Both the position numbers and the translations under genes were made by a program. The notes below the pieces were generated by a model that did not search any database, was not told the DNA's origin, and worked only from the letters and a program-made list of their open reading frames with translations. DNA of 64,000 bases. It comes from a virus. The DNA is taken from the IMG/VR virus record IMGVR_UViG_3300050821_003860, positions 4,023 through 68,022 of that record, one strand, 5' to 3'. Of the stretch, positions 2 through 57,598 are shown in pieces (the stretch's first letter is position 1; each line of letters opens with the position of its first letter).

Positions 2-706
2 ATCCTTGGCCGTAGACCCTCTGCGGGCTTCCGCTCCGTGTGGCCGACGTGGGTATTCGAGAAAGCCCTGACGACGTTCCAGCATTCCCCCGCCTCAGCC
101 TTCCTCCAGATTGGCTTCGACGTGGGCGAGATGGGCGACGACCCCTCTGCGTTCTGCGTCCGGCATGGGGGAAACATCATCCACCTGGAGGAGTTCCACG
201 GCCCGAAGGATTTCTCTGCCGGGAAGAAGGCCGCTGGCCGGGCGCGAGACTTGGCTTTCCACTGCGCCACGGGACTCGGCAAGGATCCCAAGCGCGTGCC
301 GATCGTGGTGGACTGCGGGGGCGGATACGGAAATGAGCCCGTGAACCATCTCCGGGCCGAGGGGTACATGGCGATACCCATTATGGGCAGCTGGACGCCG
401 GGGGACGAGGAGCAGTTCCCGAACCTGCGCTCAGAAATGTGGGTACTCTCTTCCCGCGCCGCTGCGGACGGGCAATTGAGTTTCGCCCAGCTACCCATCC
501 GAGAGCAGGAGATGCTCCGGGTGGAGTTGACCGCGACCGAGTACGACATCAACCTCAAGGGGCAGATGCAAGTAGAACGGAAGGCCGAGACGAAGAAGCG
601 CATCGGGCGGTCGACGGACTGCGCGGATAGCCTGCTTTACTCGCTGGTCAATGTGGGCATGATCGAGGAGAAGGTGGCCGGGAGGCTGGAGACGCCGGGC
701 GGCTAG
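2..706 (+). CDS. terL: Terminase large subunit, C-terminal nuclease domain (5' truncated by window)
   Basis: Frame open from window start. RNase H-like motifs GFDVGEMGDDPSAF, VVDCGGGYG, FPNLRSEMW and KKRIGRSTDCADSL; portal and head genes lie downstream. Confidence 0.9.
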   Translation: MLGRRPSAGFRSVWPTWVFEKALTTFQHSPASAFLQIGFDVGEMGDDPSAFCVRHGGNIIHLEEFHGPKDFSAGKKAAGRARDLAFHCATGLGKDPKRVPIVVDCGGGYGNEPVNHLRAEGYMAIPIMGSWTPGDEEQFPNLRSEMWVLSSRAAADGQLSFAQLPIREQEMLRVELTATEYDINLKGQMQVERKAETKKRIGRSTDCADSLLYSLVNVGMIEEKVAGRLETPGG

Positions 707-794
707 GTGTGACCCCGGTTCACACCCGAGTGCAAAATTGCACTCCTGTCTACCTAGCGGGTAGACTATTAGCAGGTGTATTGGGCAGTACACC
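706..794 (+). promoter_or_regulatory. Composite element: GGTGT-N11-ACACC (706-726), GTGCAAAATTGCAC (730-743), putative -10 TAGACT (762-767), GGTGT-N10-ACACC (775-794)
   Basis: Read directly from the sequence; similar arrangement recurs at 22.7 and 39.0 kb. Confidence 0.7.
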
Positions 795-1298
795 GGGATT
801 CCGGGAGAGGAGGCGAAGAAACGATACTTCCTCTACTGCCAGACGTGCGATAAGTTCAGTCTGGTCAAAGCGTTCTCGAATCGGTGGAACCCCGCGAAGA
901 TTCCGAAGTGCGAGTGCGGCAGTACACGGCGAGAGTGCAACTGGAAAGAGGCTGAGAAAGCCCGGCTGCTGTTCCCTTGGAAGCCAAAGAAGGGTCGGCT
1001 CGACTGGTACGGCAAGTACCTGGCCGGTCCCCTTTGGAGGGTGATTCGGGAGCGAGTGCTTGTTAGGGATAACCATGAGTGCCAAGCTTGCCATCGCCTC
1101 GCTACCGAAGTTCACCACAAGTCCTACGACGAGGAAGTCATGGCGGGCCAGCGGGATGACTTGCTGGTGTCGATTTGCCACGACTGCCATCGGTTTATCG
1201 AGTTCAATGAGACAGGCCAGAAACGGGGATTGCGGAAGGCGAACGCTGCTTTGCGGCGGCTGATCGAAGGCCAACCCCCGGTGTCTAGACACGGGTAG
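780..1298 (+). CDS. HNH endonuclease with N-terminal Cys-rich extension; start uncertain
   Basis: RDNHECQAC...EVHHKSY...LVSICHDCH. Frame is open back to 765 (CQTC, CECG, YGKYLAGPLW) with no ATG/GTG/TTG before 1041. Confidence 0.75.
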   Translation: MGQYTGIPGEEAKKRYFLYCQTCDKFSLVKAFSNRWNPAKIPKCECGSTRRECNWKEAEKARLLFPWKPKKGRLDWYGKYLAGPLWRVIRERVLVRDNHECQACHRLATEVHHKSYDEEVMAGQRDDLLVSICHDCHRFIEFNETGQKRGLRKANAALRRLIEGQPPVSRHG

Positions 1299-1768
1299 AA
1301 TTCCATCATGCGGGCGAGTTGCTGTGCCCGGAAAGACTCCTCTAAGGAGAGTGTGAGGTATGAGCGAGCGGGTAGAAATCCTGATCGACGACAAGTGGTG
1401 GCCTGCTATCTCCGGTCAGCTTGTGGCCGAGAAATACGAGTGGGAAGTGGAACTTATGGCCGGTCGGAATTGGGTTAACGGGCGGCCCACCGAAGGGAAT
1501 GCCTACGTTCGCGGTCGCGGGGCGTGTCTGTGGCGATTGGTAGCGTGAACTTCCACAACTCTCCAATCCGTCCACCGTCCATCCTCTGCATAGAGGCGCA
1601 CCGACCGGCCCGGCTTGGCCTCGGGAGAGGGTAGCCAGACCTGCCGGCGATCGGCGTGGCGTTCCAGGGTTACAGAGCGGTAGTCCATGCGAGACGGACG
1701 CAGGAGAGCGGGCGACGGTTCACTTCTATTCTAGGCGGGGCGGACGTGGGCTATCAGGGAGGAGAGGG

Positions 1769-3431: not shown

Positions 3432-3445
3432 GGGGGAACGCTTCC

Positions 3446-3537
3446 GGTGTACCGGGGGTGTACACCTACGGACAATCAGGGATAGTGTAAGTCGCCTGAA
3501 GTGCAAAATTGCACTCGTCTCGGGCCCGTGGTACGAT
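3446..3537 (+). promoter_or_regulatory. GGTGT-N11-ACACC (3446-3466) and GTGCAAAATTGCAC (3501-3514) overlapping a sigma70-like promoter TTGCAC-N17-TACGAT
   Basis: -35 at 3509-3514, 17-bp spacer, TGn extended -10 at 3532-3537, upstream of a run of small + ORFs. Confidence 0.7.
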
Positions 3538-4330: not shown

Positions 4331-4529
4331 AGGCGAGACGGTCAAGATCGAGGGTGCCGGCAGCTACATCGTCGCGGTGAAGAACTGCGCCCGCTGTCAC
4401 CAGGACCACGACGCGGTACAATTCCTGCGCCTCCGTCATCCATTAGAGGTATCCGGCATGACGCATTGGGCAAAGTGCCCGGTGACAGGCGAGCCGATCA
4501 TGGGTAAGCAAATAGACCCGGAGGTATGA
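4320..4529 (+). CDS. Small Cys/His zinc-binding protein
   Basis: CARCHQDH...THWAKCPVTGEP. Confidence 0.55.
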   Translation: MASEGETVKIEGAGSYIVAVKNCARCHQDHDAVQFLRLRHPLEVSGMTHWAKCPVTGEPIMGKQIDPEV

Positions 4530-4530
4530 C

Positions 4531-5556
4531 ATGGCCGCTCCTGTTCTCGGTCTGGACCAGTTCGGCGTGAATCTCTGCAAGGCCCTCGGGTTGAATCCGG
4601 ACGTGACGCGCCACATTTGCATGGACTGTCCGTGCGATGGGATAGTCACTGTTTACGTGGAGCAACACATCACGGAGGAAATGAGCCAGGAGGTCGTAGC
4701 CGCTGTCAAGGCAGCGAATCAAGAGAACTGGCGGAAGTACCTGCCGAAAGAAGGGCCTGACTCGGCAGCCAAGCTAACCCGCATCCTGGATGGCCGGATC
4801 GCCGAATTCTCCGACCACACCTACGCGGACATCCCGGCCGGCTTCGTGGCACAGCGGCGGGTGGGCGTGCTTTCCGAGTATCATCCTCCCCGGTGGCGTA
4901 TCTGTCGAGAGGAGCACGTCTATAAGGAAGGGTACGGAATTCTGATCCCGCAAGGAACCTGTCGAGATTACTTCGACATCGCCATGCGGTACATCACGCT
5001 AGCGAAGGACCTGCCGGAAGAGAAGATGGTGCAGGTCGGCGAGCGATTGTACTCGAAAAGGGTACTAGCTGAAGCTGCCGGACTGCCACCGGTTGAGATT
5101 GAACACCCTCGTTGGTGTGAGGACATCGAAGAGTGGACGCTCACTCCGGACAAATGGCTGAAGGGCGAGTTGCATTTCGAGGAGAAACCACCTCTCGGTG
5201 CCTTGTTGGGCATTAAATCGGTGGGAGCGATGTTATCGCCGGACGTAGTGACGGCCACGATAAAGGAAGCTGATGGTCGGGCTATCTGTTGGGCGAGTGG
5301 CACTCTCGCAATGCCGGGTGGGTGTTACCCGATTGCCGAACCGATTGAGTTGACCAATCCCCCGCAGAGAGTTTCTCTCAAAGGCCGTGCCGGCAGGGTG
5401 ATTGTTCTAGCCAAGCACGAAGGCCAGTGGTGGACTGCTTATCTGGAGAAGAGGGCACTAGAAGAGGCGGAAGCGACCTTGGGTGTACCGCCCGAAACAC
5501 CTGCGCCAAGCGAGGGCGACGCGGCAATGGAGTTCTTCCGGAAGACGAACCACTGA
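4531..5556 (+). CDS. Hypothetical protein (341 aa)
   Basis: GGAGG RBS, long ORF coupled to neighbours. Confidence 0.65.
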   Translation: MAAPVLGLDQFGVNLCKALGLNPDVTRHICMDCPCDGIVTVYVEQHITEEMSQEVVAAVKAANQENWRKYLPKEGPDSAAKLTRILDGRIAEFSDHTYADIPAGFVAQRRVGVLSEYHPPRWRICREEHVYKEGYGILIPQGTCRDYFDIAMRYITLAKDLPEEKMVQVGERLYSKRVLAEAAGLPPVEIEHPRWCEDIEEWTLTPDKWLKGELHFEEKPPLGALLGIKSVGAMLSPDVVTATIKEADGRAICWASGTLAMPGGCYPIAEPIELTNPPQRVSLKGRAGRVIVLAKHEGQWWTAYLEKRALEEAEATLGVPPETPAPSEGDAAMEFFRKTNH

Positions 5557-6437: not shown

Positions 6438-9275
6438 ATGGACACCAACGGTCACAGCATACCAATTGCCCATCCCGTCTCCGATACCCTGCGCGACCTA
6501 CAGGAGCAGGTGGACCGGGAACGCCTGAACGCCGAACTCGCCTCGATCAAGCAAACCCGTCAAGTGATGGAGCAGGCGGGCGGGGAATTCGGCAACTGGA
6601 TCAACCCGGCCACGCCGTTTTTTGACTCCCCCGATTTCTTCTTCCCCTACGTCGGCGAGAACCTCCCGTTCAATATGGACAACCGCCTCAAGGGCGAGTT
6701 GCTCCCTGTCTACATCACGGAATATGGTCTGAAACTGCTGCGGGACTACTCCCGGTGGCTCGCGGCGTTCAACCCCTACGCAATCTCGGCGCTCGAGAAT
6801 CGGGTGTCCTACGTCATCGGCAAGGGGTTTGGTTACACGGCCGTTCCTTCCTCGCGGAAGCCCGTCTTCACGAGCGGAGACCGGGAACTCTGTCGCATGG
6901 CTCAGGCGGTGTGGGATGAGTTCACGGATCGTGTGGACTGGGGCCAGTGGGAGCAGCTCATCGCGCACAAGGTCGACGTCGATGGGGAGGCGTTTATCCG
7001 GTTCTTTCACACCGGGGGAGGGCGGGTGACGATTCGCCCCGTCGAGCCGGAGCACGTCCGCTCACCGGGGGACCAATCGGCGCACCTGAGTTACGGGATC
7101 GAGACGCCCGAATACGACATCATGGACGTCATGGCCTACTGGGTGATCTTGAACCCGGCCCTGTCGGTGTCCCCAACGCGGATCCCGGCAGAAGAGATGA
7201 TGCACTTCAAGCAGGATGTCGGGCCGTCTGCTAAGCGAGGTTATCCGCTGCTCATTCCGATCCGGCAGAACCTCGCAAGAGCGGTATCCCTGCTCCAGTA
7301 CATGACCGCCCTCGCGCGGGCGCAGTCCTCGATCGCCATGACGCGGAAATGGAAGCAGTACAGCGCTCAGTCAATCAACGCCTGGCAGCAGAACAACGCG
7401 GACGTGCAGAGCGCAAACTGGTTTTCCGGACAACAAAGGTACGGCAAGCAGTACCTTCCGGGGACGGTGCTAGACATCCCGGAGAACGTGGAGTACGAGT
7501 TCCCCGCCACGAAGATCGGCGCGGCCGCACTGACGGAGGTATTGCAGGCGGAACTACGCGCGATCGGCGCTCGGTTGGTGATGCCGGAATACATGATTTC
7601 GGGGGACGCGAGCAACAATAACTACGCGAGTTCGCTTGTGTCCGAAGCCCCCTCGGTGAAGAATTTCGAGCGCATCCAGTCCACCTACTCCCGTTGGTTC
7701 GGAGACGGGCGGAAAGGCTCACCCCGTCATTGCGGGGTCTGGTGGCGCGTCATGCGTGCTGCCGTGGAATGGGGACTCCTACCGCGAGAGGTTCTCTCCC
7801 GAGTCAAGGCACACGTCGAGCCGCCGATGGTAGCAGCTCGTGACCAACAGAAGGATACGGAACGCTTCAAGTCCCTGAACGAATCAGGAGTCATGTCCAA
7901 GGAGACGTGGAGCAAGAAAGAGGGCCTTGAGCGCGACCGGGAAAAGACACAGATTGAGAAGGAACAGGCCGAGCAACCGCAGGGTGTACCGGGTCAGCCG
8001 GGCCAAGTACCCGGACAAGTGCCAGGGCAGCCCTCTCAACCACCGAAGCCCGGGGAGCAGCCTCCCGAGCAGTCTGAGGGTAGCCCCGAACGTCCGGATG
8101 GTGGCAACAGCGGGAGTGGCGGGATCGACGAAAAGCACCTGCCCGCGATGGCTAAAGACGCGCAAGAGTGGATCGAGGAAGTATTCCGTCTCACCGGGAA
8201 AAAAGCACGTTTGGACCCTCAGCAGGTGATGGATGCCTTGCGAGGGCAGATGCCGGGTGAGCAACGTGGGATGGTGGAAGCTACGGACTCGACAGGACAC
8301 GAGCACGACGATGCGGGGTTATTCACTGGCCCTGGACAACCAAGCAAGGCCGACAAGGTTTATGCACACACACAACGACAGAAAATTTACAAGCAGTATG
8401 GGCATGTCGGTTATCAGGAGATTTCGTTAAGCGAACTAGCCGACGATGATTTGCCGGATGCAAAGGCGGCAGAAACTGCCGTGAAAATAGCACGACAAAA
8501 CGAATCTGCCAATCAAGACGTTGCCGTTACCACAAATAAACACGGCACGTTTACGGTTTGGGTTGGTACAGAGAGTCCGACGCATGCCCTGGACATCACC
8601 TACAAAGATGGCGATGTAATTTTTGAATCTTCGGATGGTAGGAAGCGAATTCAGGCCGAAGATGTAGCCGAGCAAAAACGGTGGATAACCCGCATGCTCG
8701 GGTATCGCAAGCGGAAAGAAGAAGCCTGCGAGCCCAACAAGATCGGCCACGGCTACCACGATTCCGAGTCCGGCTTTCCCTGTTCTCCTAACGGTAAATC
8801 GACAGGTCAGCGCCAGAACGGCGCAGGTGTGACCCCCCCTCACACCCAAGGTAATAAATCACCCGAGTTGTCCTCTATCGCACAGAAAACGGCTAAAATC
8901 CTGAGCCATGCGAAGGGAGCAGTAAAGCGTCAGGCGATCCGGATGGTGGGCAAGGCGCGGGCTTTCGCGGAGAAGAAGTTTGCGGCCCTGGAGGCGAAGT
9001 ACGGCCGGGCCGGGGCAATCGCGGTAATGTCGGCGGTGATCGCCATGACGCCGGTCCCGGTGCCGGGGAGCAGTCTGGCGCCGATACTGTTGGCAGAGGG
9101 GGTGCGGTATGTCGCTCAGAAGATGGCGGGGCCACAAGTAGCGATGGAATCCGTCTCCCATCCCCGCCGCTGCGCCCTCTGCGGCGGTCCAGCAATCCCA
9201 ATGGCAGCCGGCGGCTATCGGTGTGGGAATCCCCCGTGTGAGTGGGTGACATGCACGACAACAGCTACCTCTTGA
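6438..9275 (+). CDS. Portal protein (lambda-type) with ~430-aa C-terminal extension
   Basis: VDGEAFIRF, KRGYPLL and SGDASNNNYASS motifs; lies between terminase and protease; PGQ-repeat linker after about aa 515. Confidence 0.88.
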   Translation: MDTNGHSIPIAHPVSDTLRDLQEQVDRERLNAELASIKQTRQVMEQAGGEFGNWINPATPFFDSPDFFFPYVGENLPFNMDNRLKGELLPVYITEYGLKLLRDYSRWLAAFNPYAISALENRVSYVIGKGFGYTAVPSSRKPVFTSGDRELCRMAQAVWDEFTDRVDWGQWEQLIAHKVDVDGEAFIRFFHTGGGRVTIRPVEPEHVRSPGDQSAHLSYGIETPEYDIMDVMAYWVILNPALSVSPTRIPAEEMMHFKQDVGPSAKRGYPLLIPIRQNLARAVSLLQYMTALARAQSSIAMTRKWKQYSAQSINAWQQNNADVQSANWFSGQQRYGKQYLPGTVLDIPENVEYEFPATKIGAAALTEVLQAELRAIGARLVMPEYMISGDASNNNYASSLVSEAPSVKNFERIQSTYSRWFGDGRKGSPRHCGVWWRVMRAAVEWGLLPREVLSRVKAHVEPPMVAARDQQKDTERFKSLNESGVMSKETWSKKEGLERDREKTQIEKEQAEQPQGVPGQPGQVPGQVPGQPSQPPKPGEQPPEQSEGSPERPDGGNSGSGGIDEKHLPAMAKDAQEWIEEVFRLTGKKARLDPQQVMDALRGQMPGEQRGMVEATDSTGHEHDDAGLFTGPGQPSKADKVYAHTQRQKIYKQYGHVGYQEISLSELADDDLPDAKAAETAVKIARQNESANQDVAVTTNKHGTFTVWVGTESPTHALDITYKDGDVIFESSDGRKRIQAEDVAEQKRWITRMLGYRKRKEEACEPNKIGHGYHDSESGFPCSPNGKSTGQRQNGAGVTPPHTQGNKSPELSSIAQKTAKILSHAKGAVKRQAIRMVGKARAFAEKKFAALEAKYGRAGAIAVMSAVIAMTPVPVPGSSLAPILLAEGVRYVAQKMAGPQVAMESVSHPRRCALCGGPAIPMAAGGYRCGNPPCEWVTCTTTATS

Positions 9276-10199: not shown

Positions 10200-10209
10200 G
10201 GGTTGCTCC

Positions 10210-10416
10210 TCAGACAAACTCCTGCACGGACACATTGAGCGCCTTCGCCAGCGATACCGCACTCCTCCACGTTGGGGCATGTAGGCCCCTCTCCAGTCCC
10301 CGCAAACCAGAGCTATTCAGATTGGCCCGCTTGGCGAGCGCGTAAGTGGAGAGTCCGGACTTCTTCTTCAGACGGCGAAGGCTGGCGGAAAAGCGGGTGA
10401 CAACAGAGTCCGGCAT
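10210..10416 (-). CDS. XRE-family HTH regulator
   Basis: LRRLKKKSGLSTYALAKRANLNSSGLRGLERGLHAPTW...LAKALNV. Confidence 0.88.
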   Translation of the reverse strand: MPDSVVTRFSASLRRLKKKSGLSTYALAKRANLNSSGLRGLERGLHAPTWRSAVSLAKALNVSVQEFV

Positions 10417-10472
10417 TACTCAACCCTTTGGGATAGCACTTATCCGCCCGAGTGCAAAATTGCACTTCAACC

Positions 10473-10691: not shown

Positions 10692-10834
10692 TTTTACTCC
10701 TTTCGGCCACTGATCAACCTCCGGTGTACCGGGGGTGTACACCCAGTGGCTTCGGCCCTCAATTTGTAACGCATTACTCTAGCGTAACCGATTCTACGTT
10801 GACGAAAGGGGAGGAAGCAATTGCAATCTACCGT

Positions 10835-12343
10835 ATGGTTCAGTCCCGGCATGGAAAGAATGGACGCAGCGCAAACCGGTTGACGCGCCGGTTTCTCAAG
10901 GAAGAATTCGCCCCCGAACCGAATGAGGGGCTTGAGGTAGACGAGAAAAACTGCCTCATCCGCAACATCTGTATCCTCGGGCCGAACTCCCGCAACCGCA
11001 ACCGCTACACGCGTCAGGCGATGGAGCAAGCCGTCGCGGACGGGATTTACGACAACGCGAAATCTTTCATCAACCACCCGGAAGACCCACGCGGGCGCAG
11101 GAAATTCGAGGCGCGACTCGGCAAGACGGTCAACCCCCGCTTTGAGAACGGCCGGGTCTACGCGGATTACCTTTACAACCCGAAGCACGATCAAGCCGAT
11201 TCGCTAGTGTGGGCTGCCAAGAATGACCCGGACTTCGGGGGGTTCTCTCCCAATCACGAAACGGTTGGACACGAGGAAGCAGACGGGACATGGGTGGTCC
11301 ACAAGATCACTCAGGCCCGCAGCGTCGACCTCGTGGCCGAGCCCGCCACTAACCGCAACTTGCAAGAGGGCGCAATGGACCCGGAACTCGATGACATCGA
11401 AGACGGTGGCGGGAATTACGAAGAGCATCTCGGCAAATTGGTTACCGCCGTGATGCGCGATACCTCCCTCGACGTAGCGGCCAAGCGAAAGAAGATTCTC
11501 GGCGCCCTGAAACTCCTCGACGATGAGCCGGAAGAGGAGGTTGAAGACGGCGGCGATATGGTCGGGGACGAAGAGGAAGGCCGCGACGATCACGAGGACA
11601 TGCCCGAATCCCCGGAAAATGAACCGGAGTGGATGGGCAAGGACGAAGAGGAAGACGAGGAGCAGGGCCTCGACGTCGAGCCAATGGCCGAATGCCCCGA
11701 CTGCGGGGGGGAGATGGTCAACGGCGAATGCCCGGCCTGTTCCGGAGAACGGAGCAAGGTGGCGAAAGAGTCGACGGGTTCCAAGCAGGGGAAGAAACGC
11801 ATGAAAGAATCCATCGACTACGCCCGCCAGCTTGCCAAGAGCAAAGACCCTCGCGTCCGTCACATCGCGGAATCGCTCCTGCACAACCTGGACCCTCAAC
11901 CGCCCCGGCGACCAGCAGGTCGCGGTAAGCAACGGCATGTACAAGAGAGTGTCCGCCGTCATCGTCAGGTCCAGGAAGACCTCTCCCATCACCCAGACCC
12001 GCGCGTCCGCCGGCTGGCCCGCGAGCATCAAGACCTCGCGGAACGGCATGACGTGATGGAGTCGCGCCTCGACGAAATGGAGGTGGCGCAACAGCTTACC
12101 TCCAAACGCACCACGGCCCTACGGCTGTGCGAAAAGGCCCATCTACCCCGCGAGGCGGTGACAAAGACCTTCCTTGGACAGCTGCTCGACGCGCCGTCCC
12201 GTCAGGTCATGGAGGACTTGGTAGAGGACCGCCGGCATGCGTTCGGGATTCAGATTCCCGTTTACGCACAAGCGGGGGGTCCAAACGGCATGACGGACAA
12301 GCAAGCCAAGAACATCATCCTGAATGGTCACGCGGAGAAGTAA
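10835..12343 (+). CDS. Prohead protease fused to acidic/coiled scaffold region
   Basis: NSRNRNRYT, FINHPE, GGFSPN, SVDLVAEPAT (His/Ser/Asp); acidic and helical C-terminal half; upstream of capsid genes. Confidence 0.85.
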   Translation: MVQSRHGKNGRSANRLTRRFLKEEFAPEPNEGLEVDEKNCLIRNICILGPNSRNRNRYTRQAMEQAVADGIYDNAKSFINHPEDPRGRRKFEARLGKTVNPRFENGRVYADYLYNPKHDQADSLVWAAKNDPDFGGFSPNHETVGHEEADGTWVVHKITQARSVDLVAEPATNRNLQEGAMDPELDDIEDGGGNYEEHLGKLVTAVMRDTSLDVAAKRKKILGALKLLDDEPEEEVEDGGDMVGDEEEGRDDHEDMPESPENEPEWMGKDEEEDEEQGLDVEPMAECPDCGGEMVNGECPACSGERSKVAKESTGSKQGKKRMKESIDYARQLAKSKDPRVRHIAESLLHNLDPQPPRRPAGRGKQRHVQESVRRHRQVQEDLSHHPDPRVRRLAREHQDLAERHDVMESRLDEMEVAQQLTSKRTTALRLCEKAHLPREAVTKTFLGQLLDAPSRQVMEDLVEDRRHAFGIQIPVYAQAGGPNGMTDKQAKNIILNGHAEK

Positions 12344-14500: not shown

Positions 14501-15220
14501 ATGGCAGAAGATAAACAAGCCGCTGACGCCAGCATTCAGGCCGCGAACGACAAGGCCATCGAAGCCGCACGCGCCCTTGCACGGGAGAAAGCCAAGAATG
14601 CCGTCAAGGACGTTCAGAAAGGGCCGCAAGCTACGCTTCAGAATGCAGCGCTGGCCGCTCTGGCGTCGGGTGCTCAGACTTCAGTGCAATCGGGTTTCCA
14701 GAAGACACTGGAGCAGCAGGCCGCCGCGTTCATTCAACCCCCGGCGCAAGCAGCTCCTGAAGTGCCTCCCCCCGAGCCGCTCACCGAAGCGGAGCAGGCC
14801 GAGTACAAGTCCGCGCTGGAACGGATTCAGGAACTCCAGAAGAAGGCATATGGCGATGCCATGCCTCCGGAGGGTGTGCCGGCCCTACGACCCGTCAAGA
14901 AATGGCGGGTGCGCCTGGACGGGGTGACGATCGGCACCACGGCGGGGGCGAAGCAGTTGGTCGCCTACCAGCGCAACACGAAGATGGTTCCGCACCCTCT
15001 CCCCGGTTACAGGCCGCTCCTCTGTCCCGATGGTCTGGACGTGGTGGAAGCCACGAGCGAAGGGGAAGCGTTCGAGAAACTCAAGGCGCGGTTCTCGATC
15101 ATTCAGACTGAAAAGACTCCTGTGATTGTGGAGTACAACAGCGCCAAGGACCGGGAACTGTTGCAGGCCGAGTTCCTCGCGGGAGTCGCCAGCGGCGATG
15201 ACATGCGGATCCCGGCGTAG
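14501..15220 (+). CDS. Hypothetical head-region protein
   Basis: GAGGG RBS, directly after capsid gene. Confidence 0.65.
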   Translation: MAEDKQAADASIQAANDKAIEAARALAREKAKNAVKDVQKGPQATLQNAALAALASGAQTSVQSGFQKTLEQQAAAFIQPPAQAAPEVPPPEPLTEAEQAEYKSALERIQELQKKAYGDAMPPEGVPALRPVKKWRVRLDGVTIGTTAGAKQLVAYQRNTKMVPHPLPGYRPLLCPDGLDVVEATSEGEAFEKLKARFSIIQTEKTPVIVEYNSAKDRELLQAEFLAGVASGDDMRIPA

Positions 15221-15265
15221 GTGTACCTCCCCGGTACACCGCTGGGTGTCAAGGGGGTTCACACC
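15220..15265. repeat. Tandem pair of GGTGT-N11-ACACC palindromes (15220-15240, 15245-15265)
   Basis: Read directly; first copy overlaps the upstream TAG stop. Confidence 0.85.
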
Positions 15266-25391: not shown

Positions 25392-25449
25392 GCCCAAATC
25401 AGCGTAGGTGTACACCCCTGATACACCCAGCCAATAAGGGACAGTAACG

Positions 25450-30490: not shown

Positions 30491-30537
30491 GTGTACACCC
30501 CCGGTACACCCAGCCTAAAAAGGGACAAGCTTTGTCT

Positions 30538-38997: not shown

Positions 38998-39089
38998 GTG
39001 CAATTTTGCACTTGAACGGACACGGTAGGTAGCTTATTCGCGCAGGTGTGAGGGGGTTCACACCCGCAGGTGTACCGGGGCGGTACACC
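38998..39089 (+). promoter_or_regulatory. Composite element: GTGCAATTTTGCAC (38998-39011), putative -10 TAGCTT, two GGTGT palindromes (39045-39064, 39069-39089)
   Basis: Read directly; immediately upstream of the CxxCH gene. Confidence 0.75.
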
Positions 39090-44643: not shown

Positions 44644-45720
44644 ATGCCCTACCCCTACTTCACCGCCCCGCCCCCGTCCGGAGACACAACCGGCGCCACG
44701 GACACGGCCCAACTTCAGGGCGCGATCAACTCCACACCGGATACCGCGTGCCTGCTCTTTCCCTGCCCGGCACCGTACTACATCAACGCCCGCCTCAATG
44801 TCTTCTCCCGCGCTGGTCTGCGTCTCCTGTCAATGGGGTCTCCGGACACGCTCGGCATCGGCAAGCGGGGCACTGAGCTAATCTGGAAGGGTCCGGTCGG
44901 CATCGACTCGGCCCTGTCGCTGAACTACGCTCACCGCTGCTCAGTGGAAGGGATAGCCCTATCCTTCGATGGGAGCACTACGCCGCCTCTCGCTGGCCTG
45001 CGCCTCGACCAGTGGCCGGATCCCACGATGCCGAAGCCTACGATCACGACCACGACCGCCTGCGAGGTCACGCGCTGCCTGGTGACGGCTCCGGTGTCAC
45101 CCCCCGGTACACCTGCGACCTTCCAGTGTGTCAGCCTCGCGCAAGTCTCTCAGCAGAACGTCGATTTGATGACCTTTGACCGCCTGGTGTGCCAGGGGGG
45201 CGCAGTGGGTGTCTGGCAGGGCAGCAACAGCAACGGCAAGGGACAACTCGGGCGCCGGTGCCAGTTCAACAAGTGCGGCACTGCGGTTCACTTCCTCTCC
45301 GGATCCGGAGCCTGGGAGGATTGCACGGCTCAGAGTTGCGGCGTGGACGTGCAGAACGATGGCGTATCGGACTTTTGGGTAGTGGAGCGCTGGAACTCCG
45401 AAGGCGCTGGCATGGCCATATCCGTGCAGGGATCGTCTGCCATTGCCGCTGTCCGCAATAGCCGGTGGGGAAATATGACGGGACCGGCCGCAGTGTGGCA
45501 CCGCAATCTGCCGGGGTTATTCTTGGAAGGGAACTATTTTCAAGGCGCCTGGAATGGAGGCGTCCCATTTACGGCGCCATTCCAGCTTCCGCCGGCCGGT
45601 CAGGCACCGATCACGGCGACGAAATTGCATTGCTCCGGGAATCGGTGGTATCAGATGCTCCCGAAGTTAACGCAGCAGTTCGGGATATGCAGCATTGGTA
45701 TGCCCGATAGTGAGACTTAA
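44644..45720 (+). CDS. Right-handed beta-helix (pectin lyase-like) protein, possible depolymerase
   Basis: SGDTTGATDTAQLQGAIN N-cap followed by beta-helix-like repeats. Confidence 0.65.
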   Translation: MPYPYFTAPPPSGDTTGATDTAQLQGAINSTPDTACLLFPCPAPYYINARLNVFSRAGLRLLSMGSPDTLGIGKRGTELIWKGPVGIDSALSLNYAHRCSVEGIALSFDGSTTPPLAGLRLDQWPDPTMPKPTITTTTACEVTRCLVTAPVSPPGTPATFQCVSLAQVSQQNVDLMTFDRLVCQGGAVGVWQGSNSNGKGQLGRRCQFNKCGTAVHFLSGSGAWEDCTAQSCGVDVQNDGVSDFWVVERWNSEGAGMAISVQGSSAIAAVRNSRWGNMTGPAAVWHRNLPGLFLEGNYFQGAWNGGVPFTAPFQLPPAGQAPITATKLHCSGNRWYQMLPKLTQQFGICSIGMPDSET

Positions 45721-45726
45721 ACAGAA

Positions 45727-45828: not shown

Positions 45829-48800
45829 TCACCTCCTTTTCTTTCGCTTGCGGATCATTTCCAGAGCCATCTGGTAGCCACACAGGCGAGCGTAGAACAC
45901 TGGGCTAGGATCGTACAGTGGCCAGCGGGCGCCGCGCCCACAACCGCAAGCACACTTCGGGCGAAGCTTGCGAGGAGTTTTATCGCCACGTTCTTTGCGT
46001 TCTAGATACTGGCGCCGGCGTTCCGCGCGTTCCTCATTCTCATTCGTGCGCTCTTGCTGCTCAATCTCTTCGGAGGTTCGGATTCGCAGCAGTGTCAGTT
46101 CGCTCATGGCTTCATCTCCGGGAACAACTCTTTCTGTCGTGCCACTGAGACACACCCTTTGACTGGCATTTCTCGCGCGGGCAGCGGATCGTAATCCCGT
46201 CCTGCTCATAGTAGGTTTTCATCTTCTCTCCCTCAGTCAGACAGGAACCCCGCGCAGGTGTGAACCGGGTATACACCCAGCGGTCACTGCCTCGCCGCGA
46301 ACCACGCCCGCGCCTGCGTGCGAAGTACGTGCAGAGCTACGCTTAGCCGTTCATCGCCATCATCGAAGTCTGCCAGCTTTCGCAGGATCGCCTCGGCGCC
46401 GTCGAGACGGCTGGCCTTATTACAGAGTTCAACGAGACTTTCTCCGACGCAGTACCGATTAGTAGTGAAAGGATATGGGGAATCGTGAGCAGTTACGGCC
46501 GCCAAATCCCTGCCGTTGGCGTCAAAGATGTGCAAGCCTTCGTGCCGCAATGGAAGGCGAATGTGCGTGTTCTTGTCGCTCGCCGGCTCTTTGTGCTCTA
46601 CGTTCGCCGGCTTTACAGCCTGAGTGTAGACCCATCTCTTACAAGGACATCCTCCAGTGGTACACGCTCCGGTGGGACCGTGACAGTCGAGAGGATGCCA
46701 GCAAGCGCTACACAGTGGCTTGTGCTCTACGTTCGCCATTGCTCATGTACCTCGGGGTTAGGCGTGGGGTGGGGCGTCGGGGAGAGGAAGATTGCCCATT
46801 GGCTTCCAGTGCGTAGGTTGTGGCCTGAGAGTACGGCCCTCATCGTCCACGAAGCGATCAAGTCGCCCTTGGCACTCGCCGAGTTCGATGTATTGGCCAT
46901 CGGATAAGAGCACTCTTTCGCCGAATCCGGGGTGGTTGTCCTCGATCAGTTGCCACTCCTGCCGCTCCGCTTCCAGTTCGGCGACTCGCTGAGCCAGAGA
47001 AATAGCCTTGTCAATCTGTCCCTCAGAAGCAGCCACCCGCGCCGCAAGCCGACAACCGATGGCATGCCCCTGGTCGTGGTATTGGTAGCAGCACGGGCAC
47101 TGCGAGTCACGTAACGCCACACCATCGGTGTTCCATTCGATGTCGTGGAAGAGAAGCGAGTCCGTGTCGCGCTGGGCTTCCAGATCGGCGACGCGGGCCT
47201 TGAGCCGCGTCACTTCTTTCGACAGGGAGACTATTTCTGCGCCCATTTCATCCGGCATTCGACTTACCCTCCAAAAGCTGAACCCTAGAATCGAGAGCAC
47301 GAGCAATCCGAACATTCTCTAGAATCTTAGAAAGGTTACTTAATCGCTCTCTGACTGACTCGTCCCACTCGCTCCAATCTGTTCCGTCTTGGTGCCAACC
47401 ATCGAGCAGTTGGGCGATATCCGGCATCAAACGATCGGCAAATTCTACTGCTGCTACCAACGGCTGTAGTGCGGCTTCGAGGTCCGCGATGCGTTCTTCC
47501 GCTTGCTCAACCCTGACGACCTCTTCGGCGTGAGAGTCCCAAGCTTGCTTCGCTTCTCGCTCGGCCGCATTCGCGCGGGCCCGCTCGGCGTCCAAAGCCG
47601 TCTCAGTAAACAATCGCGTCCCATGTGGGTACTGCTGTACGTCTCTGAAACGCACGATCCTGGCGTACCCGTCGTCTCGGTGTTCTATGAAAGCAACCGC
47701 ATCGTCCGTCGCCGGTCTCACCTCATCAGCCATCACGCACCGCCTTTCTGAGCGATACAGTCGACGATGGCTCGGCGTGCTTTTTCCAGATTAGCTCTGG
47801 CCTTCTCCTGAGCCTCAGCACTGCCGCCGAATACTCTCAATTGGTACTCCAACCTGACGTAGTCGCGGAATTTGTTGATCCGCCTTTCAAGCTTTCTCTG
47901 CTGCAAGCTCTTGACCATTGGCTCCCTCCCCTATTTGTGATCAAAGATTCTGTTCTTCCCACCCGCTTTTCGCGTCCATCTCTCGATCACAGCGGCGACC
48001 GTAACCACCACTAGGAGTACAAGCCACACCCGGCCAGCCCAGAGGCAGACGAAGTCGAATCCGGTCAGGTCCATGCCCCCTACTCCCCCTTTTCGTGCCC
48101 CGATTCGCCTCGTGCCGGGACCGGCTCCAAGCCCTCTCTGCGCTGCCGGAGAATGTCCAAACAGTAGAGAACACCCACGCATTCGAGACAACTTCCGCAG
48201 GCTCGCAGGTGATCGCAGTAGTGGTCAGCTATCGCTTTAGCTGCCGACATATTCTCCTCTACCGCACCCTGCCGTCGGGCCGCGTCTTCGGCCTCGCGGA
48301 TGATGACGGCAACGCATTCCTGGCAAGGCGAGCTTTCAAAAGTGTGCGTACACTTATCGAATGCTTTCGCTATTCTCTCTTCCGGAGTCGGTATCACATC
48401 TCAGCCCTCCCTTGGTTCCCCTTGCTCACCCCCGGACAGTCAGCCCGAAAAAGGCCACAAACCGTGCCGATGCAACCACGTCCCAAACCGGCTGCCGGGG
48501 TTCCTTGACCCGAACTCGAAACCCAAGACGTAAAATCCCCAGCGACCAGAAATGACCCCCGGCTTATTACGGAAAAGGCCGCAGTAGTCGCCGGACTTAC
48601 ACCTGGTTCGCCACCACGGAAAGCTGCTAATTAAAAAAGGTCCAAGCTTCATCTGTCGATCCCCTCCACAGAGTTAGCTCCCAGGTAGGGCTGTCACCCT
48701 GGCACGGGCTTTTCTTCCCGATGGTTGTAAATCACGCTCTTGTAAACATCGACATGTACGTAGTGCTTGTGCTTCCGAGCGTGTATTGCTGCGGCCCCGA

Positions 48801-50312: not shown

Positions 50313-50406
50313 AGCCTCAGTCCCTCCATCTCCCGCATCCCATACCAGTATTCCGCCTCGCAGCGGAGAGCCATTCCGGGTTTCTCCTCGTGGGTGTACC
50401 GGGGGG

Positions 50407-51063
50407 TTACACCTGCGCTCCTTCGGGCATGTACTGCAACGCTTTCCGCGCCATCCGATCAAGTTCAGTCCCCGCCGCTGGGCCTTCCTTCATGGCCATT
50501 TCCTGCAAGATCGGTAGGCCCGTTCGCACGCTTTCGGAGACTTCCTCAGCCGTGGCCTTGCGTCCCTGACAGTACCACAGCGGAGTCTCGGCCGGCTCTC
50601 CGATGTTGATGAGCCAACCTCCCATACCGTCATCGAACAGGTAGGCTGTCTCGCTTGTCCAGAGGCAGGTCACTCCGGGATTGCGGCGGATCATTAACCC
50701 GTCCGCGTCTTGCGTCTCTTCCGGCAAGCCGTTCTCGCGCCGATCCATCTGTGGCTTGGTCAGGAACGGACACGCCATCGCGGAGTAGATCGCACATTCC
50801 TTGTGACATCCCGGCTCGGCGGTTGTGCGGTTGACTACGCACATGGGGCCGATGACGAAGGTTTGCCGCTTCGGGTAGCCGAGAGACTTCCCGCACACCC
50901 AGCACTCGCCTAGTATCCATGCCAACTCACGGACTTGCGGTCCAGCGACACGAAACTCCGGCTTGCCGTTCTGCCAGTAGACAAACCGGGGAACCGGGTA
51001 GCCTCGATCATCAACGGGCAGATGAGCCATGTTCGCTGGCAGAGGCGGTAAATCTGGTCGCAT
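50407..51063 (-). CDS. Conserved hypothetical phage protein (RGYPVP...CWVCG...HKECAIYS..ACPFL)
   Basis: Cys/His motifs; RBS. Confidence 0.7.
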   Translation of the reverse strand: MRPDLPPLPANMAHLPVDDRGYPVPRFVYWQNGKPEFRVAGPQVRELAWILGECWVCGKSLGYPKRQTFVIGPMCVVNRTTAEPGCHKECAIYSAMACPFLTKPQMDRRENGLPEETQDADGLMIRRNPGVTCLWTSETAYLFDDGMGGWLINIGEPAETPLWYCQGRKATAEEVSESVRTGLPILQEMAMKEGPAAGTELDRMARKALQYMPEGAQV

Positions 51064-54838: not shown

Positions 54839-55123
54839 TTACTCCTCGCTTTCTTCCTCTCCGCCTTCGCCGCCCTTCTTGGCCCGCTTGACCTTCACCT
54901 TTTCCAGATCCTTGATCGTGACTACCTTTCCGTCGTACTCGTATACGGAAAGCTTGTTGTCCTTCATCAGTCGCAGCAGGGTATCCTGCCTAGTAATCTC
55001 GATTTTCTGCTGGCCCGTACGGAGATCACGAGCCTCGACGTATTCCTCAGCGGCCTTGTCAATCTCCGGGATAGAGGGAGGCTCCGTCCCCGGAATGTGA
55101 CGCTGCCTCGGTTTCTTCGCCAT
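54839..55123 (-). CDS. Small coiled-coil phage protein
   Basis: IPEIDKAAEEYVEARD; RBS. Confidence 0.55.
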   Translation of the reverse strand: MAKKPRQRHIPGTEPPSIPEIDKAAEEYVEARDLRTGQQKIEITRQDTLLRLMKDNKLSVYEYDGKVVTIKDLEKVKVKRAKKGGEGGEEESEE

Positions 55124-56699
55124 AATCAAACCCCTTCGGTCTAGCCCTCTCGGGCACGCTGGTTAGCTGGTCCATCGGTACATCCTTCACCAGCCAATAC
55201 TTATGAATCTCCTGAACCGGCATGAGAGGCCAAGCCGGGTCGGGCCACTGCCAGTAGTTTTCTTGAGCGAACAAGGCCATTGCGGCGGCGAACGTCTTGG
55301 AACCCTTCACCGATCTTGATCGCCAGTACATCCGCTCCCAACGCTTCGGACCTTCTGGGACCTTGCAGATGCGGTGCGGTCGGAAGATGTCTCCGACTTG
55401 CTCCTTTAGGATTCCTTCGGAAGTGAGGACAGGCCGCGACTTGATTCGTGGGAACTCAAAGCCGCAACCGCCCCGCGCGACATTGCAAGTGCGACCTCCA
55501 GCCCAAACCCGGCGGCAACTAGGACAGAGGAAAGGTTCTCCTCCCGTTTTCCGGAGTCCATCAGAGCGAATGCTGGAGGCAATGTCGGGCGTGTAGGCGA
55601 GTTCCCAATGTCGGTCTTCGTTGAGACTCCCGTGTCGCCACCAGTTCCCGCCGTGGTCTTGAATGGTGACGCAATCCAGGGAAACGTGATTACGAAGCAC
55701 GCGCCCGCCGGACTGAAGGTAAGTCTGCAAGCCGCCGAAGATACACGCAAAGATGCAGTGAGCGAGCCAAGGAGCGTTAATGCCTTCGCGTAAGACGAAC
55801 CGGGTTGAGATTCCGATGATTCGTCCTTCCCGGCTGGCGGCGAGTAAGTCTCGCCGGTTATCCTTGCCTTGCTGCCCGACTGCGGTTTTGAATTCGCCAT
55901 TGATCCAAATCTCCTCTCCGTCGATGTGTGCCCACGGGCAACCCTTGGACGTGAACCGCTCGGCGTACCACAGTGATTCCGGAACCCCCGGAGCGAACAG
56001 AAGCGTCGGCTTGCGCTCCGGGTTTATCTTCTGGAAGTTCTCCCAAACGCTCCCGAAGACGCGGTGAGGAGCCATCGCCTTCTCGGCTTCCTTCACCTTG
56101 AACAGCGGGCCGGGGGAAATCTGCTTGAAGGATCGCATATCCGGCTCATCTGGTGCGAAGTGGATCGCCGGTATGATCGCTCCGCAAGCCCGTAGATCGG
56201 TCATGTTCGCGGCCACGATCAGAACGTCGCAGGTGTCCGCCATTCCCAATGGAGTGCCCGTCAGCATGACGTAGGCCGCGCCCGCTTCCAGGTGAGCATC
56301 AAGAATGCCCTTGGCCATCGCGTTGTTCTGCAAGTGGCCTTCATCGACCAGCAGCCGTTGCGCCGGGTGAAGAGCACCGCCTCGCTTGCTTCTGCTGTGC
56401 TCCGTCTGAATCGAGGAAATCTGTACGGCCTTTTCGTGCTGCTCCTCTTCGCCCGATGCCCGGATGCCGTGGTCTATCCCGGAGTCGGCGAAGTCCTGGT
56501 CAAGCTGTTCGATCAGGAAACGGCGATTAGAGTAAATGCCAACCCACAACCGATCCTCTCGCCATCGCCGGGTCAACTCCTCCATCACCCACGTCTTTCC
56601 GCCTCCCGTGGGAATGTAGAGCGCGATCCGCCTTGTGCCGGCCGAGATGGCTGCCAGCACTTCATCAACGGCCTTCAGTTGGTGCGCCCAAGGAATCAC
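55059..56699 (-). CDS. Superfamily II DExH helicase with C-terminal zinc finger
   Basis: PTGGGKT, DEGH, LTGTP, LREGINAP, QSGGRVLR, DHGGN, CPSC; GTG overlaps the upstream stop. Confidence 0.92.
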   Translation of the reverse strand: MIPWAHQLKAVDEVLAAISAGTRRIALYIPTGGGKTWVMEELTRRWREDRLWVGIYSNRRFLIEQLDQDFADSGIDHGIRASGEEEQHEKAVQISSIQTEHSRSKRGGALHPAQRLLVDEGHLQNNAMAKGILDAHLEAGAAYVMLTGTPLGMADTCDVLIVAANMTDLRACGAIIPAIHFAPDEPDMRSFKQISPGPLFKVKEAEKAMAPHRVFGSVWENFQKINPERKPTLLFAPGVPESLWYAERFTSKGCPWAHIDGEEIWINGEFKTAVGQQGKDNRRDLLAASREGRIIGISTRFVLREGINAPWLAHCIFACIFGGLQTYLQSGGRVLRNHVSLDCVTIQDHGGNWWRHGSLNEDRHWELAYTPDIASSIRSDGLRKTGGEPFLCPSCRRVWAGGRTCNVARGGCGFEFPRIKSRPVLTSEGILKEQVGDIFRPHRICKVPEGPKRWERMYWRSRSVKGSKTFAAAMALFAQENYWQWPDPAWPLMPVQEIHKYWLVKDVPMDQLTSVPERARPKGFDYGEETEAASHSGDGASLYPGD

Positions 56700-57598
56700 G
56701 CCTTCACCTTCTGCAATCGCTTCTTCCAATCTTTCATAGTTTTTGCCACCTTGCCGAGCAACTCGACAACTTCCTTGTACTCGGCGCTCTGCTTCTCTTC
56801 CTTGAACACGTCCTTGATCACGTTCGGGAACCGGGCCACGATCCCGAAAGCGGTCTCATACTTGGTCCAGGTGATCTCGACTTTACCGTTGTTCTGCCGC
56901 TTCTTCTTCTCGGCCTTCTCCTGTTCGCTGTCGTCGCCCGGCTCGCGGGGCGCTTTGCCGTTTCTCTCCTTCCTGGCGTTGTCCCGAATGATCTTGCAAT
57001 CCGGGCAATTCTTCTTCGGGCCGTTGAGTCGGCAGTTACGGCAGAAGACAGGAGCAGCCTTTGTGGAGGACTGTTCTCGGCCATCCTTACCCGTCACTTT
57101 GCCATCGGGAGGCGCAGGTGTACCGCCCAATACACCGGGAGCGTTTTCGAGGTCGCGTTGTGTGGTTGCGGGAGTCACGCCGGTCTTTTCTGCGATAGAT
57201 CGGATGCTCTCGCCTTGCTCTCGCAGACGCGCTGCCTCTGCTCGCCTCTCTTCGATGCGCTTGGCAATGTCCTCTTCGTCTTCATGTCGGCGGTTGTCGT
57301 TGACCAGTTCGTCCCATTCTTCCAGGGTCAGATCCTTCTGGAGTCGCACCGGCTCGAAATCGGGCCGTAAACCGGCTTCGATACACGCCTGGTAGAACTG
57401 CCACCCGTCCGCAACTTTGATCTTCCCGCCGTCGCTTGGGTCCGGCGCGAGCTTCACTTTCCGTTCGTTTACATTGCCGAATTTCTTGACTCCATCCCGC
57501 ATTCGCTCCAATGCCTTGCCCTTTAGGTCGGGTCGCCGGGCCGATACGGGATGCCGTTGCAGGGTTCGCCAGGTTCGCGGTTGTGTGAAAGTGGCCAT
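56696..57598 (-). CDS. ParB-like N-terminal domain plus HTH DNA-binding protein
   Basis: RHPVS...VADGWQFYQAC...NDNRRH; GESIRSIAEKTGVTPATTQRDL; KVTGKDGR; CRNC/CPDC. Confidence 0.75.
   Translation of the reverse strand: MATFTQPRTWRTLQRHPVSARRPDLKGKALERMRDGVKKFGNVNERKVKLAPDPSDGGKIKVADGWQFYQACIEAGLRPDFEPVRLQKDLTLEEWDELVNDNRRHEDEEDIAKRIEERRAEAARLREQGESIRSIAEKTGVTPATTQRDLENAPGVLGGTPAPPDGKVTGKDGREQSSTKAAPVFCRNCRLNGPKKNCPDCKIIRDNARKERNGKAPREPGDDSEQEKAEKKKRQNNGKVEITWTKYETAFGIVARFPNVIKDVFKEEKQSAEYKEVVELLGKVAKTMKDWKKRLQKVKA

Follow-up and report, generated by a model that had tools for sequence, protein, structure and literature searches.

An array of invariant palindromes in a tailed-phage genome

We analyzed 64,000 nucleotides (nt) of DNA from the IMG/VR virus record IMGVR_UViG_3300050821_003860. 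This whole stretch, called here the window, corresponds to bases 4023 to 68022 of a single 68,022-bp virus record with a G+C content of 58.7%, and its source is a novel tailed phage. Our subject is a palindrome, GGTGT-N10/11-ACACC, that recurs across this genome, together with a helix-turn-helix (HTH) protein encoded at 56696 to 57598, whose own gene carries one of the copies and which is the candidate reader of all of them. Some copies lie close to a second conserved palindrome, AGTGCAAAATTGCACT, referred to below as the AGTG palindrome. The GGTGT copies in the window, all unstranded, are listed here with their surroundings (ORF, open reading frame).

706 to 726: C-run core; overlaps the TAG stop codon of the large terminase gene, 26 nt upstream of an AGTG palindrome
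775 to 794: N10 spacing; 43 nt downstream of an AGTG palindrome
3446 to 3466: G5 core; intergenic, 15 nt past the end of an ORF
5482 to 5501: N10 spacing; in frame (GVPPETP), toward the 3' end of ORF 4531-5556
8826 to 8846: C7 core; within the portal-fusion ORF, in frame (GVTPPHT) in a linker of low complexity
10723 to 10743: G5 core; 56 nt upstream of ORF 10799-12343
15220 to 15240: C-run core; overlaps the TAG stop codon of ORF 14501-15220; first of a tandem pair
15245 to 15265: G5 core; partner of the preceding copy in the tandem pair, 31 nt ahead of ORF 15296
22742 to 22762: follows an AGTG palindrome by 45 nt; in frame within ORF 22626-23822, in the linker downstream of its lipobox
22777 to 22797: C6 core; forms a tandem pair with the preceding copy, within the same linker of ORF 22626-23822
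25407 to 25427: intergenic, with a stop codon 16 nt before it and the ATG at 25450 following after 23 nt
30490 to 30510: C5 core; overlaps a TAG stop codon, 28 nt before the ATG at 30538
34203 to 34223: G5 core; within the 2OG-Fe(II) oxygenase ORF 33513-34253, in frame (GVPGVYT) and 16 codons short of its end
39045 to 39064: N10 spacing; follows an AGTG palindrome by 45 nt; first member of a tandem pair
39069 to 39089: 9-bp arms; 22 nt before the ATG at 39111
45093 to 45113: C6 core; in frame (PVSPPGTP) in ORF 44644-45720
46257 to 46277: intergenic, between minus-strand ORFs
50393 to 50413: G6 core on the plus strand; contains the TAA stop codon of minus-strand ORF 50407-51063, upstream of a C5 DNA methylase gene
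57117 to 57136: N10 spacing, in-gene copy; encodes GVLGGTP in the linker after the HTH, at a position conserved in homologues

An earlier note on this DNA had reported 19 copies in the window, and all 19 were recovered with identical start positions. As a shuffled control, 100 dinucleotide-preserving shuffles of the window were found to contain 0.12 copies on average and never more than 1, against the 19 observed. The whole 68,022-bp genome holds 20 copies, the additional one being at genome position 367, ahead of the window. Variants that deviate at a single one of the ten arm bases were at chance level (5 found; mean 3.1 and maximum 8 in 30 Markov-1 simulations), and the palindrome family is therefore sharply bounded. 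The 20 copies comprise 16 distinct sequences, four copies being identical to each other and two more forming an identical pair when strands are collapsed, while the outer 5 bp are invariant in every copy. The two half-sites are separated by N11, giving a 21-nt element, in 16 of 20 cases. A core consisting of a G run or C run in either orientation, as had been described in the note, was confirmed: in 15 of the 19 copies in the window, the core includes four or more consecutive G or C, and in the remaining four (775, 5482, 46257, and 57117) the run is three long. Read on the sense strand, the centre is a G run in 10 of the 20 copies and a C run in the other 10. From this 10:10 orientation, together with the like energies of the sense and antisense hairpins, recognition of the site would be symmetric.

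The copies are not placed at random. The non-coding 12.5% of the genome, a share obtained with a crude gene caller, holds 11 of the 20 site centres (binomial p=6.6e-6). The overlaps with stop codons that had been noted hold in all four cases, since at 706, 15220, and 30490 the first G of the motif is also the last base of a TAG and the TAA lies inside the 50393 copy, and the intragenic copies do occur, as claimed, in linkers rich in Gly, Pro, and Thr or near C termini. Overall, the 20 copies group into 16 loci with a mean gap of 4.25 kb (range, 1.2 to 7.5 kb), which are unusually evenly spaced: the coefficient of variation is 0.44, with P=0.0005 relative to uniform placement and P=0.0004 when placement takes intergenic regions into account.

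The palindrome was then compared with known repeats. Its exact 21-mer had no match in IMG/VR, and a form with 19 specified bases, which matches 7 of the 20 copies, gave three single matches in 185,579 GTDB species genomes and four single matches in metagenome contigs. Since none of the GTDB species genomes or metagenome contigs contains this canonical form more than once, identity with a host-genome repeat was rejected; the earlier note had raised equal frequency in the host chromosome as a sign of a host factor, and no such repetition of the 19-base form was seen across GTDB. A cyanobacterial HIP1-type repeat was likewise rejected, GCGATCGC occurring once.

We also considered a REP/MITE-like selfish mini-palindrome, spread by insertions that include in-frame 21-nt events and having neither a trans-acting reader nor a function. 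Seven copies are tolerated in frame in linkers, 16 copies measure 21 nt, that is, seven codons, and the four identical copies and the identical pair also speak for it. However, no Y1/RAYT transposase family was recognized in family tallies for 114 crudely predicted ORFs (the set to which the gene-content negatives below also refer), the flanks of the copies show no target duplications, and the three single matches in GTDB are at chance level, so that the element is not repeated in host genomes. Moreover, even spacing is not expected from random insertion, and the in-gene copy is conserved in position and covaries with the protein, as described below. We regard this explanation as very improbable.

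The HTH gene, its conserved palindrome, and covariation with the recognition helix

The candidate reader and its neighbour are encoded as follows.

56696 to 57598, minus strand: proposed site-binding protein, 300 amino acids from its ATG
Domains of this protein: ParB/Srx-like N-domain; HTH (helices 132-139 and 143-152); DGKVTGKDG motif; CxxC..CxxC zinc ribbon; helical C-domain
55059 to 56729, minus strand: SF2 helicase (ResIII/SNF2-like), immediately downstream of the HTH gene

A Pfam search of the protein returned HTH families only, and a tblastn search against 50,697 phage records returned no match. An AlphaFold2 (AF2) model, with a mean predicted local distance difference test (pLDDT) score of 71 and scores of 77 to 91 over residues 11 to 100, had ParB, Spo0J, KorB, and Noc as its top PDB matches in Foldseek (probability, 0.94 to 1.00; E values, 5.6e-4 to 8e-2). 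As modelled, the protein has an N-terminal ParB/sulfiredoxin-like fold followed by an HTH, which would place it in the ParB/KorB/Noc superfamily. In ParB, the Box II arginine patch, GERRxRA, serves CTP binding. These arginines are absent here, where the aligned stretch reads DGWQFYQA, and from the family consensus, DGWQLYRA, with a minority reading DGRNR. No ParA/CbiA/AAA_31-type family was recognized among the 114 ORFs (E<=1e-3), which makes the partition role that the earlier note had listed among its options unlikely.

The copy at 57117 does encode GVLGGTP, four residues past the HTH, and its reported likeness to the 775 copy holds, since with strands collapsed the two differ at one of 20 positions. 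To follow this copy in homologues, we used the three full-length relatives found in IMG/VR, which are 28 to 35% identical to the protein (L001/G006, L002/G007, and L082/G008). A palindrome with a G-run centre is present in the linker-coding DNA after the HTH in all four full-length homologues with DNA, this phage included, and in all four it stops 9 to 10 nt short of the codons for the conserved DGKVTGKDG. The arms differ from lineage to lineage, yet within each lineage they are mutually complementary:

This phage: GGTGTA-TTGGGCGG-TACACC
L082: TGGTGTCT-TGGGGC-AGACACCA
L002: CAGGTGCGGA-GGGG-TCCGCACCTG
L001: CACTGTGAC-GGGGGG-GTCACAGTG

A fifth locus, L083, which matches over the HTH stretch only, has no post-HTH palindrome. 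The earlier note had suggested testing whether, in related phages, the palindrome after the HTH covaries with each genome's dispersed motif. The palindrome was present in four of four with lineage-specific arms; dispersed copies with the same arms were limited to one in G008, a complete record in which a single further copy shares the outer arms of the in-gene palindrome, and none in G006. In G007, a second copy lies inside the HTH gene. This record was not counted as having an array, because two of its distal copies, at the contig end, belong to a fold-back duplicate of the in-gene region and another, at 31577, has different bases at those arm positions which, by the code described below, would be read. 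At the end of that contig (48060-48354 compared with 4365-4485), the palindrome region of the ParB-fold gene recurs in inverted orientation as a tandem repeat, 94 to 95% identical, probably through an assembly fold-back at the palindrome; at 41.7 kb in this record, two other G/C-run palindromes enclose a further copy of the same 60-nt stretch, 77% similar.

Because a palindrome that is always translated in one frame imposes codons that pair as reverse complements, its presence can be tested in protein sequences. A profile of four proteins retrieved 349 representatives at E<=1e-30, 2,943 at E<=1e-10, and 17,818 at E<=1e-3. The best 148 profile matches were aligned with P0001 to P0003; 145 sequences had a usable window, and the 121 with a central Gly were analyzed, the other 24 being left out. 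The compatibility of residue pairs flanking the centre was compared with 2000 permutations of the 121 windows:

Residue pair (-3,+3): 65% compatible; permuted mean 31%, maximum 44%
Residue pair (-2,+2): 67% compatible; permuted mean 20%, maximum 34%
Residue pair (-1,+1): 54% compatible; permuted mean 13%, maximum 23%

Six of seven off-register controls were at chance, and the seventh, (-4,+4), was slightly raised (41% versus 30%). The commonest flanking pairs were T/V, G/P, V/T, A/A, E-or-D/S, P/G, and Q/C. A beta-hairpin would not be expected to yield G/P and Q/C pairs or an exact reverse-complement rule. The pattern agrees with the palindromes seen directly in the DNA of the four genomes, and the post-HTH palindrome thus appears to be family-wide.

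We then asked which residues of the protein vary with the arms. Mutual information with arm class was computed for about 250 alignment columns outside residues 150 to 166, keeping arm classes that comprised 77 members for the outer dinucleotide, 79 for the middle one, and 45 for the inner one. For the middle dinucleotide (arm bases 4 and 5), the top columns were 143 (0.93 bit above shuffles), 147 (0.52), and 132 (0.44), and for the inner dinucleotide they were 148 (0.66 bit), 143, and 144; the remaining columns reached about 0.35 bit at most. In the model, the second HTH helix spans residues 143 to 152, and residue 132 starts the first helix, so that residues 143, 144, 147, and 148 would lie on one face of the recognition helix. 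Individual bases and residues were paired as follows.

Base 5 = C: E143 in 17/25
Base 5 = A: Q143 in 17/19
Base 5 = T: P or V143 in 18/28
Base 5 = G: R, H, or K143 in 6/7
Inner CC or AC: R148 in 31/31
Inner CA: R148 in 0/14

The pairing follows canonical amino-acid/base preferences (E-C, Q-A, P/V-T, and R/H/K-G). In this phage, the protein has P143, Q147, and R148 and the site reads GG-T-GT; P143 and Q147 fit the GT. A further column, residue 176, tracked the outermost dinucleotide in the 77 members, Y accompanying GG/CC in 28 of 34 cases and R accompanying AC/GT in 33 of 43, which hints that the segment around it may be a second DNA-contacting element. In P0001, this residue (window ~57071-57073, minus strand) lies three positions past the invariant DGKVTGKDG. 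Linkage or clade structure is an unlikely cause of the covariation between helix and arms, since neighbouring columns were not elevated in this comparison of raw mutual information. Judged by this covariation, the HTH would read a specific palindromic site.

Candidate roles of the sites

On the evidence of conservation and covariation, we consider it probable that the 20 palindromes are duplex recognition sites of the phage's own ParB-fold/HTH/zinc-ribbon protein (56696-57598) and that an ancestral in-gene site was amplified into an array. The protein would bind the palindrome most likely as a symmetric dimer, with residues 143, 144, 147, and 148 reading arm positions 4-5 and 7-8 and the segment around residue 176 tracking the outermost dinucleotide; the invariant GGTGT/ACACC would then cover exactly the outer and middle positions read, and the G/C-run centre would be a spacer of immaterial orientation. 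The in-gene copy, about 30 bp past the codons of the recognition helix, would be the ancestral one and would keep reader and site inseparable; it would be shared by a family of hundreds of lineages in which site and helix co-evolve. In this phage, the in-gene site would have been multiplied into 16 loci about 4.25 kb apart, mostly between genes or in disordered linkers. Binding of these sites by the ParB-like HTH protein, its own intragenic site among them, as claimed in the earlier note, thus has strong computational support from the palindromes of the four homologues, the covariation, and the ParB/KorB-like fold; ParBc and Box II are unmatched, and binding itself is inferred.

Several observations weigh against this reading. 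At the level of the fold, Pfam ParBc (PF02195) matched none of the five homologues even at E<=1, the model has a mean pLDDT of 71, and the Foldseek TM-scores are only 0.2 to 0.4. At the level of the family, the codon-pair and code results rest on the amino-acid sequences of the best profile matches, and the mutual information is to some degree inflated by relatedness among members. As to the array, the in-gene copy of this phage has the N10 register and 16 of the 20 copies have N11, a difference of a single base that rotates the half-sites by some 34 degrees relative to each other. G006, a complete record, has the in-gene copy and no others, so that an array is not required for the basic function of the protein, and the closest structural-module relatives, L035 to L037, whose portal and capsid proteins are 57 to 62% identical to those of this phage, contain no dispersed palindrome family in the 11.5 to 14 kb available for each. 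Finally, the two points that follow, on arm position 6 and on the placement of the hairpins, also belong on this side: arm position 6 covaries between the two arms (Watson-Crick in 16 of 20 copies versus 10.3 expected; p=0.0016), which independent half-sites of a dimer do not predict and which a hairpin or two copy lineages would, and sites capable of forming hairpins occupy places expected for terminators or 5' stabilizers.

The latter places include cassettes formed with the AGTG palindrome, which lies, unstranded, at the following positions.

730 to 745: AGTG palindrome AGTGCAAAATTGCACT, forming cassettes with GGTGT sites
3501-3516, 10452-10467, 22695-22710, 30173-30188, and 38998-39013: other window copies, with one more upstream of the window

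These seven copies are flanked by GTCCG/CGGAC, and five of them lie within 60 nt of a GGTGT site. In four places, the AGTG palindrome precedes a GGTGT site by 43 to 45 nt and the interval contains a -10-like TAGNNT, and in two places a GGTGT site is 26 to 57 nt upstream of the AGTG palindrome. Four cassettes have the layout TTGCAC-N18-TAGNNT-like-N7-9-GGTGT, and six GGTGT copies in all lie 43 to 69 nt downstream of the promoter-like AGTG palindrome. A sigma70 scan did not call the AGTG elements as promoters. By analogy, the combined places look like terminator-promoter cassettes of the PeSL type.

These cassettes bear on the view that the palindromes are RNA or single-strand hairpins at transcript boundaries, acting as terminators, attenuators, or 5' stabilizers in the manner of PeSLs and independently of the HTH protein. 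As RNA, the sites would fold with -6.6 to -15.6 kcal/mol, equally stably on either strand. The intergenic enrichment and the stop-codon overlaps fit this view, as do the four cassettes, the compensatory pairing at arm position 6, and the variable loop length. So does the lack of any excess of canonical hairpin-plus-T-run terminators, which are below shuffle expectation in window positions 1 to 40000 (12 versus 18.0 and 13 versus 17.5 expected). PeSLs themselves are described as sigma70-like promoters with G/C-tract stem-loops that end transcription (PMC2839356, in the part of the text available), and two unrelated contigs, G001 and G002, have other palindromes just ahead of ribosome-binding sites. 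On the other hand, a stem requires pairing and not identity, yet the outer 5 bp are fixed while the inner stem and loop vary; the loop orientation is 10:10 relative to transcription, with neither strand energetically favoured; and there was no Rfam match. The hairpin view also leaves unexplained both the prediction of arm bases by recognition-helix residues and the recurrence of the same arms in the HTH gene. We hold it to be improbable. The G-U asymmetry of the hairpins was tried as a clue to the strand and proved uninformative, because by eye two sites favour the sense and two the antisense strand; the fold energies agree.

If the sites are bound, the protein may act in a KorB-like manner, as a genome-wide roadblock, silencer, or insulator of transcription units, a suggestion we make with some reserve and because the sites are promoter-proximal and located at junctions. 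The ancestral in-gene site could serve autoregulation, or act as an origin that recruits the neighbouring helicase, or both. Autoregulation through the in-gene site, as the earlier note proposed, is possible, but the site appears to be ancestral in a large family and lies beside a helicase gene in four of four genomes (this phage, G006, G007, and G008), and it might equally be a replication origin.

With the same binding, the primary role could indeed be in replication, the protein being an origin-binding initiator with its origin in its own gene and the SF2 helicase as its recruit, and the extra copies being secondary origins or titration/handcuffing sites. A lambda O-type origin is suggested by the adjoining helicase and by the location of the site in the gene, in linker-coding DNA directly past the DNA-binding domain. 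In G000 and G008, the HTH gene is also beside genes for an Erf-type annealase and a RecE/YqaJ-type exonuclease, which likewise suits an initiator. In addition, site and helix diversify jointly, as would be expected of type-specific origins, and G006 copes with its single in-gene site. Against replication as the primary role, the in-gene palindrome stands alone (two in G007) and not in an iteron array, no primase or polymerase family was recognized among the 114 ORFs, and 20 junction sites, six of them just past promoter-like cassettes, look more like expression control. We judge this role rather unlikely as the primary one.

Returning to sites read by the HTH protein, we put forward, tentatively, a broader picture: a large undescribed ParB-fold/HTH/zinc-ribbon family in which each lineage would carry its own cognate palindrome, encoded in linker codons, about 30 bp after the recognition helix, as a self-contained reader-plus-site cassette co-evolving by an E-C, Q-A, P/V-T, R/H/K-G code. 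Here, this cassette's site would have been copied into a regular 16-locus array that insulates, silences, or fires the genome, a phage-scale analogue of KorB or DnaA-box networks lacking the CTP-clamp residues.

Known systems, relatives, and further observations

KorB of plasmid RK2, with its OB operators, is by analogy the closest mechanistic model. It shares a ParB-type N-domain and an HTH with the protein described here, KorB chains were among the top fold matches, and OB is likewise one palindrome in many copies over a mobile replicon, some of them near promoters or, here, near promoter-like elements. This layout fits long-range silencing (PMC11790492). In contrast to KorB, the phage protein has no ParBc match, replaced Box II arginines, and a zinc ribbon, and no KorA or ParA partner was recognized among the 114 ORFs; in contrast to OB, the GGTGT sites have a variable 10/11-bp G/C-run centre and include a cognate site inside the protein's own coding DNA.

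The nearest described phenomenon, again by analogy, is the 17-bp palindrome TGTTCGGNNNCCGAACA of Cluster O mycobacteriophages such as Corndog, of which the part of PMC4351075 available reports 34 copies with invariant 7-bp arms. Its centre is a TTT or AAA homopolymer in either orientation, and the copies, which the host does not share, are intergenic and intragenic; neither an integrase nor parAB is encoded by these phages, although a protein with a ParB-like domain is, and the authors expect a dimeric binder and describe the role as unknown (PMC4351075). Invariant arms, a homopolymer centre that can face either way, mixed positions, and a ParB-like protein without integrase or parAB are all shared with the present phage. 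Sequence and spacing differ, and there is no detectable protein homology. As far as the available text goes, no Corndog copy is reported inside the ParB-like gene and no binder is assigned, whereas here covariation names a candidate.

The earlier note had instead drawn a parallel with the stoperators of L5. These are, in the available part of PMC4351075, asymmetric sites of Cluster A phages that are oriented with transcription and bound by the immunity repressor of a temperate phage. They resemble the GGTGT sites in being short conserved junction sites across a phage genome, proposed to block transcription when bound. The comparison fails on symmetry and orientation: the GGTGT sites have perfect inverted-repeat arms and a 10:10 centre, and no integrase was found among the 114 ORFs.

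A similar repeated intergenic element, promoter-like and followed by a G/C-tract stem-loop, is the PeSL of the T4-like phages RB49 and phi1 (PMC2839356), to which 4 to 6 sites with the AGTG palindrome correspond here. PeSL stems are not sequence invariant and, in that part of the source, have no protein reader assigned, and most GGTGT sites stand alone.

Origins that lie inside an initiator gene are exemplified by lambda O/ori and by SPP1 G38P (gene 38)/oriR, and parS occurs inside spo0J. These systems share with the HTH gene a cognate site in the coding sequence of the binder, past the DNA-binding domain, which is kept in four of four genomes here, and an adjacent helicase gene. The lambda O/SPP1 type differs in having iterons where this phage has a single palindrome, and this phage has 19 extra copies. 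In the literature, we found no origin-in-gene ParB-like phage initiator, no GGTGT motif, and no self-embedded, co-evolving site in a ParB-fold family, supplementary files apart.

Dispersed invariant phage palindromes, such as that of Cluster O, have so far lacked an explanation for want of an identifiable binder. In this phage, a putative binder is named from sequence alone, through covariation of its recognition helix with a site in the same gene. If this is correct, hundreds of natural protein/site pairs would provide a ready-made specificity code for an HTH scaffold; the family would show how phages keep a regulator and its target genetically inseparable and how a single ancestral site can be amplified into a genome-wide, evenly spaced array; and the roles of the ParB fold in phages, whose diversity has been surveyed (PMC12704722, available in part), would be widened beyond partition.

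As for the remainder of the genome, the recognized functions are a lambda-type portal, capsid, tape measure, Erf-type annealase, RecE/YqaJ exonuclease, SF2 helicase, and three DNA methyltransferases, together with the 2OG-Fe(II) oxygenase and a large GT2 protein (1007 amino acids). The three methyltransferase genes, the oxygenase, and the 1007-residue GT2 protein make a possible DNA- or surface-modification set. Integrase, ParA, sigma factor, RNA polymerase, and Y1 transposase families were absent from the 114 predicted ORFs, and no Rfam families or tRNA genes were found. Megablast and tblastn searches of 50,697 phage records for relatives gave no match, nor did an IMG/VR capsid search or a single-sequence terminase search. 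Among public read sets, the stretch was contained in one soil-metagenome DNA run only, which may be its source, and no RNA run was listed. Relatives of the terminase include that of a Gemmata prophage (40% identity), a weak hint at the host.

None of 35 terminase-related IMG/VR loci carries the GGTGT motif, and only one of them, L048, has a dispersed palindrome family, of a different sequence. No ParB-like homologue was found in G001 to G005, records that are 19 to 83% complete. G001, the 47.6-kb provirus record of L048, contains the perfect palindrome GGTCGCGCGACC 41 times, frequently as part of the longer form AGTGGTCGCGCGACCACT; in many cases it is located between a stop codon and the next ribosome-binding site. 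It encodes two homologues (33 to 40% identity) of the 68-residue XRE protein of the present phage and no ParB-fold homologue.

The XRE protein is itself a candidate binder of the AGTG palindrome, because one copy sits 38 nt upstream of the start of its small gene (10210-10416). G002, a 21-kb IMG/VR contig with 50% G+C and no shared proteins, has six exact copies of AGTGCAAAATTGCACT, each 10 to 20 nt before a ribosome-binding site. Within the window, at 22626 to 22800, a whole cassette of about 120 nt, made up of the AGTG palindrome and two GGTGT palindromes, is in frame with no stop codon and separates a convincing lipoprotein signal (MRRILWLSLLLTGC) from the AlgX/SGNH domain of ORF 22626-23822.

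Two other repeat families were seen in IMG/VR loci. The non-palindromic word AGCCGGGGGGA occurs 12 times in L059 and 9 times in L060, on one strand, in 12 to 13 kb; it is usually followed by a GGGAGG-like stretch and is also found inside the terminase gene. Finally, L040 contains, at 1248-2250, 14 copies of a 34-base repeat (13 identical and one with two changes) at intervals of 71 to 75 nt with unique spacers, which looks like a CRISPR array on a viral contig.

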